A stretch of 23,745 nt of DNA from Candidatus Heimdallarchaeota archaeon (lineage in GTDB: Archaea; Asgardarchaeota; Heimdallarchaeia; Heimdallarchaeales; Heimdallarchaeaceae), in the NCBI GenBank assembly GCA_016840095.1, contig JAEOSZ010000008.1, positions 1 through 23,745 of the forward strand, read 5' to 3'. Below the pieces are notes generated by a model, which did not search any database, was not told the DNA's origin, and saw nothing but the letters and a program-made list of their open reading frames with translations. Positions 18,357 to 23,638 of the stretch are shown one piece after another; within the stretch, counting starts at the first letter, position 1, and each line of letters begins with the position of its first letter. A program made the translations under genes and the position numbers.

Positions 18357-19787
18357 ATGACTCAAGAAACTTACCGTATTTATTCGAGGGTACTCAAGTT
18401 TGGACAAAGGATTGGTCTTCGAAGATTTGTTGAAACATTAGTCTTTGGTATAACAATTTTCGCAATTTCATTAGTATATCTATTTGTTATTATCCTTTCA
18501 CCAATCGGTCCAACTGGAAAATATATCTTCTTTCCCTTAGGATTCTTCTTTGAATTAGTTCTGATTCTTAGTTACATTGAAAATCATTACTTCATAGATA
18601 TTTTTGGTGACAATACTAACAAATTACTATCAGTTTTAGGAGTTGTTTCTCTAACTGTAATCATCCTTTATGCAAGTATTCCTGGTTTCTACATCATTGT
18701 TGATACAGGTGATCCTTTGGGACATATTCATGCGCAAAGTGTAGCTCTTATAGTGTTATTCTTCTTGCTAAATGTAATAGAAACGGCGTATTTTCTGTTT
18801 TCCATTCCTAGAACAGATAGATCTGATACATTTGGATTAGAATACCAATTTTCTATTCTTGAGAAAGGTCTAGAAACAAAAAGATTGGGAGATCTCAATA
18901 TTGATAAAGCAATGACTAAGGGATTATCTGCTTTGAAACGTAGAGTTTCTGAGGAAGGATTTTGGGGAGACTTTAATCCTACATTTGAAACAGCATGTGT
19001 GCTGGAACTTTTCAATAAATTAGGATACAATGAAGACACTGAATGGACAATCAATACAGAAGAAGGAAAGAAAACAGTAACTTTAGGTAAGTCTATTGAA
19101 AGTCTTAAGGCAGTAGTGGATACTGTAGAAACAATTGATAATTCATATGAACAATTCTATGTTCTGTACGTTCTTAGTCTCTTTGATCCAACAATTTTCG
19201 ATACACGGATTGAATTAGTTGATGAATTCTTTAATTCAGCCTTTGAAGAAACAGAATGGGATTTCATCAATAAGCTGAACAGATTCACTTCGAATCTTCG
19301 TTCTAGAACAACACCCCTACATATCATAATGAGCTATGTAGGAGACATCACAGGAAATATTAAGTTACTTGACAAAATGGCTAATCTTTTCTCAGCTTCA
19401 ATAGATATAATTGTTAAAAGAGGCTATGCTAGATTTTCTACATCACAGACTGGTAAAACACCAATTGAGATGTTTGCTAGAATGATGCTTGCATTACATG
19501 ATATTAGAAGAGCTCCAACAAGAAGACAACAATTTGTACAAGCAGTTGTAGGAACCCAATTTATTGAAGGTTCTTGGGCAGCAGATATCGGAACTACTGG
19601 ATATGTCATTCAATCACTTCTACCAAGTGAAACAGCTGATTCCCTACCACTAAAGAAATCTGCAATTTATCTTGCTGCAATTCAAGATAAAGAAGGTTTG
19701 TGGAATTCTAATATTGAAGAAACAACCATTGCATTAACAGCATTAAATGGCTTACAGCATCTTTCAGATCAAGAAACAGCAATTTAA
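18357..19787 (+). CDS. Membrane protein (4 N-terminal TM) with C-terminal prenyltransferase/squalene-cyclase QW-repeat alpha/alpha domain
   Basis: SEEGFWG...ETACVL, QFIEGSW...TTGYVIQSL and YLAAIQDKEGLW...ETTIALTAL repeats. Confidence 0.68.
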   Translation: MTQETYRIYSRVLKFGQRIGLRRFVETLVFGITIFAISLVYLFVIILSPIGPTGKYIFFPLGFFFELVLILSYIENHYFIDIFGDNTNKLLSVLGVVSLTVIILYASIPGFYIIVDTGDPLGHIHAQSVALIVLFFLLNVIETAYFLFSIPRTDRSDTFGLEYQFSILEKGLETKRLGDLNIDKAMTKGLSALKRRVSEEGFWGDFNPTFETACVLELFNKLGYNEDTEWTINTEEGKKTVTLGKSIESLKAVVDTVETIDNSYEQFYVLYVLSLFDPTIFDTRIELVDEFFNSAFEETEWDFINKLNRFTSNLRSRTTPLHIIMSYVGDITGNIKLLDKMANLFSASIDIIVKRGYARFSTSQTGKTPIEMFARMMLALHDIRRAPTRRQQFVQAVVGTQFIEGSWAADIGTTGYVIQSLLPSETADSLPLKKSAIYLAAIQDKEGLWNSNIEETTIALTALNGLQHLSDQETAI

Positions 19788-20308: not shown

Positions 20309-20382
20309 TGGCAGACCCAAGGCGATTTGAACGCCTGCCACAGGATCCAGAGTCCCGTATCCTTCCACTAGACGATGGGTCT
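20309..20382 (-). tRNA. tRNA-Gln(CTG), CCA encoded
   Basis: Acceptor AGACCCA/TGGGTCT; anticodon arm CGGGA-CTCTGGA-TCCTG; T arm AGGCG-TTCAAAT-CGCCT; ends G-CCA. Confidence 0.9.
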
Positions 20383-20488: not shown

Positions 20489-21199
20489 ATGAAGAAAATT
20501 TTCATAACAGGAGCTAGTAGAGGGCTGGGATTAGAATTTTCAAAACAGTATCTTGAAAGAGGAGACACTGTAATTGCTAGTTGTAGGAATCCAGAAAAAG
20601 CTGAAGCTTTGAAGGATTTGAAATCAATTTTTCCCGATAATCTAACTATAGTTCAGCTTGATGTTGTTGATGAACAGTCACGAAATGATGTCTTTACTAA
20701 TATTGAGAAAGAGTTTGATGCAATTGATATTCTAATCAACAATGCAGGTATTATTTCTGGGAATGAGTCAGAATCTTCAGTATTGGGGGAAATTTACAAA
20801 GAAGATTTCAGAAAGGTTTTTTCAGTCAACACCATTGCACCTTTATTAATGAGTGAAAAATTATTACCACTTCTAGAGAAAAGTAGTAATGCAAAAATAG
20901 TCAACATCTCTTCCCAAAATGGAAGCATTGCTCTGCGAAGTGTGGGTGGAAAATACTCCTATGCAGCTAGTAAAGCAGCTCTTAATATGGTTACAAAAGT
21001 TTTGTCAAATGATTTGAAGGATAAGGGGATAATTACTTTAGCAATTCACCCAGGTTGGATAAAAACAGACATGGGAGGTTCAAATGCTCCATTGGAGATA
21101 GAAGAGCCCATTTCACAGATAATTAGCTTAACAGATAAAAGCAGTCTCAATGAATCAGGAAAATTCCTAGATAGAGAAGGAAAGGAAGTACCTTGGTAA
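20489..21199 (+). CDS. Short-chain dehydrogenase/reductase (CsgA/C-factor-like)
   Basis: TGASRGLG, NNAG, YAASK, HPGWIKTDMGG. Confidence 0.92.
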   Translation: MKKIFITGASRGLGLEFSKQYLERGDTVIASCRNPEKAEALKDLKSIFPDNLTIVQLDVVDEQSRNDVFTNIEKEFDAIDILINNAGIISGNESESSVLGEIYKEDFRKVFSVNTIAPLLMSEKLLPLLEKSSNAKIVNISSQNGSIALRSVGGKYSYAASKAALNMVTKVLSNDLKDKGIITLAIHPGWIKTDMGGSNAPLEIEEPISQIISLTDKSSLNESGKFLDREGKEVPW

Positions 21200-21214: not shown

Positions 21215-21943
21215 ATGAAACTGATGAAACAGATATTAATTACAGGTAGTAGCAGAGGTATAGGTTTTGAATTTGTAAGGCAATTTCTCAATGCAGGAAA
21301 TAGAGTAATTGCTTGTAATAGGAACCCAGCTAAATATCCAGATCTTTTAGAGTTGAAAGAGAAATTTAAAGAAAACTTGATTCTTATTGATTTAGACGTT
21401 TCTAGTAAAATCTCTATAATCAATGCATATGATACACTTTCTAAAGAAATAGATAGATTGGACATTTTAATCAACAATGCAGGCATCCGGTTTGGAGGAG
21501 ACGAAAAACATTGTGATAAAATAGGTTTACTCTTCAAAGAAGATTTCAGTAGAATCTTTGCTGTCAACACTATTGGCCCAATTCTACTAATAGAGAAGTT
21601 CTTACCTTTAATCAAAAACGGAACCAATCCTATTATCGTAAATATCTCTTCAACAAGTGGAAGTATAGGTAGAAGAACAAGACCTGGTGGAGGGTACAGT
21701 TACAGTGCAAGTAAAGCAGCATTAAATATGATTTCTAAAGTTCTTTCTATAGATTTGAAAGATGATAATATCATTGTAATTTCCATGCATCCAGGGTGGG
21801 TAAAGACTACAATGGAACTTACAGAAAACGCTCCTTTAACAACCTATGAGTCTGTTAAAGGAATAACTAAAGTGCTAGATAATTTGACAATGGATAAGAC
21901 TGGAAAGTTCTTCGATTGGGAAGGCAATGAACTTCCATGGTAA
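21215..21943 (+). CDS. Short-chain dehydrogenase/reductase (CsgA/C-factor-like), tandem paralogue
   Basis: GAGGAG RBS; TGSSRGIG, NNAG, YSASK, HPGWVKT. Confidence 0.92.
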   Translation: MKLMKQILITGSSRGIGFEFVRQFLNAGNRVIACNRNPAKYPDLLELKEKFKENLILIDLDVSSKISIINAYDTLSKEIDRLDILINNAGIRFGGDEKHCDKIGLLFKEDFSRIFAVNTIGPILLIEKFLPLIKNGTNPIIVNISSTSGSIGRRTRPGGGYSYSASKAALNMISKVLSIDLKDDNIIVISMHPGWVKTTMELTENAPLTTYESVKGITKVLDNLTMDKTGKFFDWEGNELPW

Positions 21944-21960
21944 AATTTAAAGAAAAGAAT

Positions 21961-22035
21961 TGGTAGCCCTGAGAAGATTCGAACTTCCGTCTGTTAACCG
22001 AAACCAACAATGCTTGGCCACTACACCACAGGGCT
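21961..22035 (-). tRNA. tRNA-Gln-like gene with aberrant 6-nt anticodon loop (TTTCGG); tRNA-like ncRNA or pseudo-tRNA, CCA encoded
   Basis: AGCCCTG-TG-GTGTAGTGGCCAAGCAT-T-GTTGG-TTTCGG-TTAAC-AGAC-GGAAG-TTCGAAT-CTTCT-CAGGGCT-A-CCA (75 nt). Confidence 0.8.
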
Positions 22036-22162
22036 GGAATTGTAACTAATTCTTTTTCTTTCCAATTCAGATTTTAAATCCTTCCTTTGAAACCTAAAGA
22101 ATTATGAGAATAAGGAATCTTTATTATTTATTTTAAAGTAGAAGAAAAGTAGGGAATTAAAA

Positions 22163-22651
22163 ATGAGTTTTCACACAGATTACGAAAAATGGTTATTGTA
22201 TTCTAGAGAAGAAAATTGTCCTGTTTGTAAGAAGTTACCAGCTCCAGTGGATGATGTAGATATAAAAGAATTTTCGAATTCATGGTTGTGCGCTCATCCA
22301 AGAGTATGTCTGAAAGGCACATGTTATCTACTATTGAAATCACATGCGGTTGAATTATTTGATCTAGATGAGGAAACACTACTTTCTTACATGAAAGAAG
22401 CTCAGATTAGTGCCAAAGCTCTCAAAGAAGTTACAAAAGCAATTAAAATTAATTATGAATTACATGGAAACACAGGACCCCACTTACACATGCATCTTTT
22501 TCCAAGGTATTTAGATGACCCTTTTCCTGGAAAACCAATTGATTACAATAAAATAGAACCATCAGTTTATCAAGAAGGAGAGTTTGAACAATTTGTTCTA
22601 CAGATGAGAAGAGAAATAGCAGAATTGTTGGGAGAACAACAAAAAGGATGA
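22163..22651 (+). CDS. HIT-family nucleotide hydrolase
   Basis: CPVC; KINYELHGNTGPHLHMHLFPRY (HxHxHxx). Confidence 0.9.
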   Translation: MSFHTDYEKWLLYSREENCPVCKKLPAPVDDVDIKEFSNSWLCAHPRVCLKGTCYLLLKSHAVELFDLDEETLLSYMKEAQISAKALKEVTKAIKINYELHGNTGPHLHMHLFPRYLDDPFPGKPIDYNKIEPSVYQEGEFEQFVLQMRREIAELLGEQQKG

Positions 22652-22658
22652 ATAAAAA

Positions 22659-23090
22659 ATGGAATATAATGAGATTAAGAAGGATCTATTTTCAGTTTCA
22701 GATGACTATTATCTAGCTCATTGTATAAGTTCAGATTTTGTAATGGGTGGAGGAATAGCTGTTCTTTTTAATAAGAAATTCAATCTTAAAGAACAATTCA
22801 AACAAATAAAAAAAGAAGATTCTAAACTCCTAGAACATCCAACTTGTATACTGGTTGTAAGAGTATTCAACCTAATTACCAAAAAACTTGTTTTTCACAA
22901 ACCTACCTATGAAACAATGAGAGGTGCTTTGGAAAAAATGAAAGAGATTTGTGATGAAAATAATATAAAGAAAATAGCAATGCCTAGGATTGGGAGTGGA
23001 ATTGATGGGTTAGACTGGATTCAAGTCAGAGAAATTATCCATGAAGTTTTTGGCAATTCTGAAGTCGAGATTCTAGTTTGCTACATCTAG
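22659..23090 (+). CDS. Macrodomain ADP-ribose hydrolase, TARG1/OARD1 (Poa1p/DarG-like) type
   Basis: [35 protein letters not shown] and [15 protein letters not shown] match the TARG1-type motif set. Confidence 0.9.
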   Translation: [143 protein letters not shown]

Positions 23091-23149
23091 AACTTTTAAG
23101 TGATACAAAAGAAAAAACTGAGAATTATCTTTGATATCCAAATTGCTTT

Positions 23150-23485
23150 TTATCGTAACTCATTTCCGCATTCTGGGCAGAATTTAGCATGTACTTTCAA
23201 AGCTTTACCACAGTAGATACATTTCTCTTCCTCTTTCTCTATAAAGATTGAAATAACATACTTAAAACCAAATGCCATGAAACCTATTGCGAAAATACCT
23301 AGAACTGAAAAATCTACAATTACAAGTATTAGAAAAGTGATGTTCTTATCATCAAAAAACTCAACAAGAGCTATTATTAACAAAGCTATAGCAAGAAGAA
23401 CAGCTATCAGTAATAATAAAATTAAGAATGGTTTCAATGAAAGCCAGACTTTGTGCAACTTCTCATTATTCTTCTTCACCTTCAT
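23150..23485 (-). CDS. 2-TM membrane protein with C-terminal zinc ribbon
   Basis: GAAGGTGA RBS; two hydrophobic helices; CIYCG...FCPECG. Confidence 0.75.
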   Translation of the reverse strand: MKVKKNNEKLHKVWLSLKPFLILLLLIAVLLAIALLIIALVEFFDDKNITFLILVIVDFSVLGIFAIGFMAFGFKYVISIFIEKEEEKCIYCGKALKVHAKFCPECGNELR

Positions 23486-23562: not shown

Positions 23563-23638
23563 TGGTAGTCCCTGGGAGATTTGAACTCCCGGCGCCAGAT
23601 TCAAAGTCTGGAATGTTTCCAGGCTACACCAAGGGACT
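23563..23638 (-). tRNA. tRNA-Gln(TTG), CCA encoded
   Basis: Acceptor AGTCCCT/AGGGACT; CCAGA-CTTTGAA-TCTGG; GGGAG-TTCAAAT-CTCCC; ends A-CCA. Confidence 0.92.

Follow-up and report, generated by a model that had tools for sequence, protein, structure and literature searches.

The window analyzed here is the whole stretch of 23,745 nucleotides (nt) from a Candidatus Heimdallarchaeota archaeon, contig C28 of a 3.44-Mb metagenome-assembled genome (MAG) that is 89% complete (labeled G000), and it harbors a 75-nt tRNA gene with a glutamine-type body and an anticodon loop of six nt, hereafter the odd or type A tRNA. Both normal glutamine isoacceptor genes flank it on the same strand. The features on which the analysis centers are the following:

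21961-22035, minus strand: odd tRNA gene (type A), 75 nt, Gln-type body, A1-U72, A73, encoded CCA at 21963-21961
21993-22008, minus strand: anticodon arm of the odd tRNA, made up of GUUGG (22008-22004), the loop UUUCGG (22003-21998) and UUAAC (21997-21993)
22069-22085, minus strand: promoter-like block GGAAGGATTTAAAATCT, resembling a B recognition element (BRE) and TATA box, at about -49 to -33, with TTTAAAA at 22078-22072
21941-21960, minus strand: T-rich trailer ATTCTTTTCTTTAAATTTTA, directly 3' of the CCA
23563-23638, minus strand: normal tRNA-Gln(UUG), the upstream neighbor in the direction of transcription, found by ARAGORN and Rfam, present in all type A genomes
20309-20382, minus strand: normal tRNA-Gln(CUG), the downstream neighbor, found by ARAGORN and Rfam, present in all type A loci

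Read directly, the 5' part of the RNA is AGCCCUG-UG-GUGU-AGUGGCCAA-GCAU-U-GUUGG-UUUCGG-UUAAC-AGAC, and the rest, after AGAC, is GGAAG-UUCGAAU-CUUCU-CAGGGCU-A-CCA. The acceptor stem is paired at 7/7 positions, the D and T arms are intact, and the core positions are all regular (U8, A14, G18 G19, G53-C61, T loop UUCGAAU), in agreement with an earlier reading of this DNA made from its letters alone (the sequence-only reading), which had described an intact acceptor stem with A1-U72, intact D and T arms, A73 and CCA around a 6-nt loop. The anticodon arm comprises a 5-bp stem and that 6-nt loop, and a hand check of alternative registers found none yielding a 5-bp stem with a 7-nt loop. ARAGORN, the type of tRNA finder whose use had been recommended, calls a tRNA-??? 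with a 2-base 'anticodon' at 21961-22035 on the minus strand, and Rfam model RF00005 matches the gene with 44.2 bits (gathering score 29), placing a deletion in the anticodon loop; this is the second-lowest score among the 41 gathering-passing tRNA matches of the genome, and it places the gene within the tRNA family. Model R1 gives 102.5 bits. These results support the earlier claim that the change is limited to the anticodon arm. Minimum-free-energy folding of whole tRNAs missed the cloverleaf even for genuine tRNAs and was not used.

A decoding (elongator) tRNA was defined by a 7-nt anticodon loop, U33 and a purine at position 37; the loop has 6 nt in 9/9 type A sequences. The body is that of an archaeal tRNA-Gln (A1-U72, A73, and tRNA-Gln genes as the nearest body relatives), while the archaeal tRNA-Gln anticodon, YUG, is not presented. 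Depending on the register, the loop triplet reads UCG or UUC in the window genome, UAG or UUA in four species, and UUG or UUU in one.

Orthologues of 75 nt, 91-93% identical, occur in six further species of the genus, and the 6-nt loop was found in 7/25 genomes searched in the genus plus two metagenome contigs. A pattern scan of 185,579 species genomes, requiring the D arm, any 17 bases, and the variable region plus T arm, returned the same six records, and a scan of metagenomes provided the two additional contigs. All nine sequences (9/9) share the loop UUUNGG, where N is C, A or U: UUUCGG in the window genome, in G009/AB_125 and in one metagenome contig; UUUAGG in G008, G010, G013, G024 and one metagenome contig; and UUUUGG in G012 only. 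The sequence-only reading had cautioned that a 1-nt deletion introduced into an ordinary tRNA gene by sequencing or assembly might explain the short loop, and had advised a check for an indel there. Logan contigs of two samples, one of which may be the source of the assembly, cross the gene free of any indel, and the loop length is equal in seven independently assembled species genomes and two metagenome contigs; because of these two lines of evidence an assembly error is effectively excluded, and nothing was found in its support.

The TTTAAAA that had been noted about 40 nt upstream lies at -43 to -37 relative to the mature 5' end of the odd tRNA, and genuine tRNA genes of the window genome (Gln, Leu, Asn, Val, His, Ser and others) display TTTAAAA some 35-55 nt upstream. 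The block GGAAGGATTTAAAATCT is identical across all type A loci, and the intervening 32 nt before the tRNA diverge. Every orthologue has a T-rich tract after the CCA, though the sequence of the tract is not conserved; it is likely an archaeal terminator, at which transcription would end.

Comparison of the orthologues indicates that the RNA fold is maintained by selection. On the cloverleaf, 105/105 stem cells (sequence x pair) form standard pairs; in a control in which the 3' partners were slid by 1-3 columns, pairing was 32-51% and there were zero double changes. Three pairs are altered on both sides (7-66 G-C/A-U, 29-41 A-U/U-A and 49-65 G-C/A-U) and five more via wobble intermediates, while 9/11 variable columns fall in stems with pairing kept in all nine. 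The anticodon stem itself is maintained through U-A<->A-U, U-A<->U-G and G-U<->G-C changes, so that the search for orthologues with the same short loop and compensatory stem changes, proposed in the sequence-only reading, gave a positive answer on both counts. Identity of the tRNA between species is 0.88-1.00; the 30 nt 3' of it display 0.47-0.70 identity in most species pairs, and the 36 nt 5' of it drop to 0.58-0.61 in the most distant pairs. As evidence, the covariation is modest by itself and becomes convincing once the contrast with the flanks is added. Conservation above that of the flanks, compensatory stem changes and a conserved promoter are the grounds for selection on the RNA, and they match the earlier suggestion that the molecule outside its anticodon arm is under selection. 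What emerges is a tRNA fold kept by selection around a non-functional anticodon loop, as in mascRNA and pseudo-tRNAs.

Normal tRNA-Gln(UUG) and tRNA-Gln(CUG) genes are present in every type A carrier; in G010, G013 and G024 just 105 nt separate the former from the odd gene downstream of it. The odd gene is therefore dispensable for Gln decoding, as had been argued from the flanking isoacceptors in the window. Three of the four UAG-loop species (G010, G013 and G024) carry a normal class II tRNA-Leu(UAG), which was not found in the fourth, G008. A need for decoding was accordingly rejected, since Gln(UUG), Gln(CUG) and, in most carriers, Leu(UAG) are supplied by other genes. Furthermore, the triplet shifts among close relatives on an unchanged Gln body (UCG/UAG/UUG or UUC/UUA/UUU), and a decoding role of any kind hardly fits such variation. 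The search for a normal tRNA-Arg(UCG) in the 89%-complete genome came up empty, but about ten other expected tRNAs are missing there as well, and this says nothing in either direction. The suggestion of charging by ArgRS finds no support, as it rests on a UCG that is UAG or UUG in sister species.

Two other ways of reading the arm had been offered. A UUCG tetraloop was rejected: by the UNCG criterion, U-N-C-G with a C-G closing pair, none of the type A loops qualifies, as the third base is C, A or U among orthologues (UUAG in four genomes and one metagenome contig, UUUG in one genome) and U-G would be the pair that closes the loop. For an 8-nt loop to form, the G31-Y39 pair has to open; this pair is G-C in 5/9 sequences and G-U in 4/9, always pairable, and the alternative is an unlikely one.

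In the order's other families, the odd-tRNA body finds its closest matches in ordinary tRNA-Gln genes; these share the acceptor stem and D arm with type A, and UUUUGGU and CUUUGGA are examples of their loops. The tRNA-Gln(UUG) genes of sister families (for example L012, L016 and L017) have in common with it the AGCCCUG stem, A1-U72, A73, the D arm GUGU-AGUGGCCAA, a 4-nt variable region ending in GAC, a T loop UUCGAAU/UUCAAAU, and U33 U34 .. G36 G37; the odd tRNA differs from them in having a loop of 6 rather than 7 nt, a base 35 not fixed as U, and redundancy with two isoacceptors. The type A loop thus looks like an ordinary tRNA-Gln loop minus nucleotide 38, and G012 still has UUUUGG.

The tRNA-Gln gene family is in flux in these genomes, with four body types (AGUCCC, AGACCC, AGCUCC and AGCCC). 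Among the tRNA-Gln(UUG) genes, an intron of about 30 nt within the T loop was observed at L002:1682-1789 (G024) and L047:1462-1566 (G005), and also in G009 and G012; the gene is without an intron in the window genome, G008, G010 and G013. At a contig end of G018 (L009:1-65) lies a truncated tRNA with a type A 5' half and a 7-nt loop, CCCUGGA, whose anticodon is CUG and whose position 33 is C instead of U.

In sister genomes, a true GlnRS gene is located directly upstream of tRNA-Gln(UUG) (L050:2052-3977 in G008, L082:31-1431 in G009, L084:105-1430 in G012), scoring 691 bits on TIGR00440 (cut-off 425.8) and 814 bits on NF011291 (cut-off 681). GlnRS was found in 21/30 genomes of the host family versus 0/16 in three sister families, and GatE and GatD almost everywhere, the host family included. 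GatE scores 375-410 bits in the GlnRS-bearing family versus 560-640 in the sister families, whereas GatD scores alike everywhere; one genome, G025, has two GatD-GatE pairs, one of each kind (contigs C214 and C94). On gene content, the host family has both the direct (GlnRS) and the indirect (GluRS plus GatDE) route to Gln-tRNA. In the window genome these genes are incomplete because of contig ends and assembly gaps: the window contig stops 107 nt past tRNA-Gln(UUG), leaving glnS out of view, a contig end truncates GatE, and GatD is absent from the assembly.

A tree of a conserved neighboring gene (window 18357-19787), built from 13 genomes with assembled loci, displayed three well-supported clades. 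In clade A, the short-loop gene is always found between the short-chain dehydrogenase (SDR) gene and tRNA-Gln(UUG). Clade B (G001, G016, G020 and G023) has nothing at the type A site, and carries upstream of the neighboring gene a Gln-bodied tRNA of 76-77 nt, termed type B:

L041:1980-2055: type B tRNA of G020
L042:1459-1534: type B tRNA of G023
L043:3266-3341: type B tRNA of G016
L044:6400-6476: type B tRNA of G001

The type B loops are of 7-8 nt (AUGUUCU, AUGAUCU, AUUUAUU and AUAUUUAU), with a pyrimidine at position 37, where decoding tRNAs have a purine; their anticodon stems contain compensatory changes (CAGUG/CACUG, CAGAG/CUCUG, CAGUG/CGCUG), and the genes have a conserved upstream block of their own. 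In clade C (G005, G011 and G017), a functional tRNA-Gln(CUG) with a type B-like body occupies the type B site; G002 and G022, absent from the tree, were placed in this clade by tRNA sequence and synteny. Two distinct displaced tRNA-Gln genes thus appear to have turned anticodon-dead in sister clades, one per clade, with fold and promoter conserved. A further variant is present in another genus of the family (G043), whose tandem L058:212-575 contains an intron-bearing tRNA-Gln(UUG), 13 nt, an odd tRNA of 74 nt, 96 nt, and a tRNA-Gln(CUG) with G1-U72. This odd gene has a type A-like body (AGCCCCA...AGUGGCCAA), an A1-A72 mismatch, and an arm that can be read as a 5-nt loop, UUUAU, or as a 7-nt loop, AUUUAUU, without nucleotide 26; ARAGORN calls it tRNA-Stop UUA.

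Integrating these observations, the odd RNA is probably a tRNA mimic, rather than an error or a decaying gene. The reading we favor, to which we assign a probability of roughly 0.55, is that of a non-decoding mimic that arose from an archaeal-type tRNA-Gln(UUG) by loss of loop nucleotide 38 and would act by binding a protein of the Gln-tRNA machinery. Transcription would be driven by its own canonical tRNA promoter, with maturation like that of a tRNA, and the RNA would fold into the normal L-shape; it could not present a standard anticodon, given a 6-nt loop whose central base varies by species. With the anticodon lost, selection would therefore act on the acceptor end and elbow, that is A1-U72, A73, CCA, the ancestral D loop AGUGGCCAA and the T loop, and also on the mere existence of an anticodon stem. 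GatDE recognizes tRNA-Gln via A1-U72 and the D loop, not via the anticodon; the ancestral 9-nt D loop and A1-U72 are kept in type A, and GatD and GatE are present in the family. The most likely action would be binding to a protein that reads tRNA-Gln independently of the anticodon, with GatDE, a non-discriminating GluRS, and the GlnRS whose gene adjoins the tRNA-Gln cluster of sister genomes as candidate partners; which of these it is would be a guess. The RNA might serve as cofactor, stabilizer or sponge, by analogy with mammalian mascRNA and GlnRS. This retains the core of the sequence-only reading, a tRNA-shaped RNA with another job, for which selection, redundancy with both normal Gln isoacceptors and a non-decoding loop all speak, and it drops the tetraloop, while the 8-nt loop and the aminoacyl donor become unlikely and the ArgRS idea is unsupported.

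Precedents for such an RNA are few. According to a review (PMC9976931), the mammalian mascRNA forms a cloverleaf without a conserved anticodon loop, binds GlnRS, does not become aminoacylated, and stabilizes the enzyme. It is thus a precedent for a tRNA mimic in the Gln system with a cloverleaf and no functional anticodon loop; unlike the odd RNA, it is excised from the long non-coding RNA MALAT1 and its CCA is added, whereas the odd RNA has a stand-alone gene, its own promoter, an encoded CCA and clear descent from tRNA-Gln, and its binding to GlnRS is only a candidate activity. The Bacillus cereus pseudo-tRNA tRNAOther is chromosomal and non-translational, with a cellular role shown by deletion (PMC3399842). 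This RNA resembles the odd gene in being a chromosomal tRNA-like gene outside translation, and differs in belonging to another domain of life, in its body and in lacking a short loop, the odd RNA being known from sequence alone. Frameshift-suppressor tRNAs, for instance of the sufG-type tRNA-Gln, have enlarged anticodon loops of 8-9 nt. Such suppressors are alike in their tRNA-Gln derivation and non-standard loop size; in the odd tRNA, the loop is shortened and the triplet varies between species.

Several observations weigh against the proposed mimic. Five of the six loop bases are invariant, which suggests that the loop is read and is unexplained by a model in which only the body matters. Expression and processing of the RNA are inferred from the DNA, the sequencing runs that contain the stretch being marine-sediment metagenomes, none of them RNA. 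The covariation rests on 5 distinct sequences from one clade, and 20/500 shuffles do as well as the real alignment; type A arose once, all its carriers falling in one clade, and few independent lineages stand behind the covariation. Searches of clade C and of genera g10, g12 and g13 (two of these genera's genomes are single-contig) found no type A gene, the three genera showing the two normal tRNA-Gln genes only; its absence from these GlnRS-bearing relatives therefore makes any function dispensable or lineage-specific. Adjacency to glnS, for its part, simply follows from membership in a tRNA-Gln gene cluster.

Some of these same points would suit a functionless relic, namely an older tRNA-Gln copy made redundant after GlnRS was gained, which suffered the loop deletion and has not yet decayed. 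The flux of the tRNA-Gln family, with its four body types, gains and losses, is compatible with this account, as are the lack of the odd gene in clades B and C and genera g10, g12 and g13, and the restriction of its carriers to one clade, where presence can be shared descent. A relic is nevertheless unlikely, since the flanks have fallen to about 50-70% identity while the tRNA is still 88-100% identical, all stem substitutions preserve pairing, three of them double-sided, the promoter block is invariant next to a diverging spacer, and a second, independent anticodon-dead copy follows an equal pattern; the pseudogene caveat of the sequence-only reading loses most of its weight on these signals. 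We consider even less probable that the RNA is charged with Glu or Gln and serves as a non-ribosomal aminoacyl donor, the broken loop keeping it off the ribosome. Conservation of the acceptor stem, A73, CCA, A1-U72 and the T arm would fit such a role, and in staphylococci a non-proteinogenic tRNA-Gly serves cell-wall synthesis. In E. coli, however, U35 and G36 are major determinants for GlnRS, mutations causing losses of up to 10^5-fold, and GluRS-type enzymes likewise read the anticodon (PMC9976931). The odd RNA has C, A or U at position 35 and a shortened loop, and efficient charging by a bacterial-type GlnRS therefore seems unlikely. Possible consumers of a charged RNA were also sought in the 89%-complete genome G000 with PF05201, PF04377 and PF02388, and no gene for glutamyl-tRNA reductase, arginyl-transferase (ATE) or FemAB was found, which counts against the donor idea; a search for LanB (PF04738) was uninformative, since its control gave no match.

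An unusual decoder, such as a frameshift or quadruplet reader with an 8-nt loop, a doublet reader, or a suppressor of UAA or another codon, has little to recommend it. UUUAGG, found in four genomes and one metagenome contig, could display UUA, as could AUUUAUU in G023 and G043, which is called tRNA-Stop by ARAGORN, and the adjacent SDR gene of G013 has an in-frame TAA; against this, the triplet differs among close species on one Gln body, G31-Y39 is mostly G-C, which makes an 8-nt loop unlikely, type B has a pyrimidine at position 37, and the SDR genes at these loci themselves terminate in TAA. Ochre suppression in particular was rejected: the in-frame TAA is found in that one MAG only, where it was taken as a lone mutation or error, and the SDR gene is intact in the other UUUAGG carriers. 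We give very little credit to the idea that the RNA, as a decoy or sponge, diverts a nuclease, toxin or viral factor from tRNA-Gln, the variable base then being the trace of an arms race. That base 35 alone varies in the loop among fixed neighbors, and that two independent anticodon-dead Gln-like genes exist in sister clades, would agree with it; yet the odd gene shows no consistent linkage to one for a nuclease or toxin, most type A loci do not have the HIT and macrodomain genes seen near it in the window, and a 6-nt loop is a poor mimic of the real target loop.

Beyond the non-decoding, protein-binding mimic that we favor, a broader proposal can be made by analogy: that this Heimdallarchaeia family keeps a dedicated, expressed, anticodon-dead tRNA-Gln mimic that regulates or stabilizes GlnRS or the non-discriminating GluRS/GatDE system, and that evolved twice from different displaced tRNA-Gln genes. 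We regard this extended version as doubtful. If true, it would be a prokaryotic counterpart of the mascRNA-GlnRS pair in a setting where two Gln-tRNA routes coexist. Functional non-decoding tRNA look-alikes are known from a few bacteria and from mammals; our literature searches returned no description of a selected one in archaea and nothing relevant on 6-nt anticodon loops, and a recent census of Asgard tRNA genes left out predicted pseudogenes. The type B genes of the sister clade, the 74-nt variant of G043, and the confinement of GlnRS to the host family with GatDE kept are new here. The interest of the case lies in the host lineage, the closest prokaryotic relatives of eukaryotes, in the change-over of the Gln-tRNA pathway, and in an apparently repeated evolution; the odd RNA could reveal how cells manage the change-over between the GlnRS and the GluRS plus GatDE routes, which was one stage in how the genetic code machinery evolved. 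It also lends itself to simple tests, which call for the 75-nt RNA, its naturally occurring loop variants and three recombinant enzymes.

The remaining genes around the odd tRNA vary among species. The insert between it and tRNA-Gln(UUG) ranges from 105 nt to about 3.8 kb, with differing genes. In the window (22163-23485), it contains a HIT-domain gene, after which a macrodomain gene follows at a distance of 7 nt, and, on the opposite strand, a small zinc-ribbon open reading frame. A module of the HIT and macrodomain genes with the odd tRNA was considered and rejected, as they are neighbors in some genomes only: in G010, G013 and G024 the upstream neighbor is tRNA-Gln(UUG), and clade B has the HIT gene without a type A gene. 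On the other side of the odd tRNA, window positions 20489-21199 and 21215-21943 encode tandem SDR paralogues, about 47-53% identical, and some sister species retain one copy only. The SDR gene beside the odd tRNA in G013 (L051:5839-6555) carries its single in-frame TAA at codon 104, and is intact in the other examined loci.
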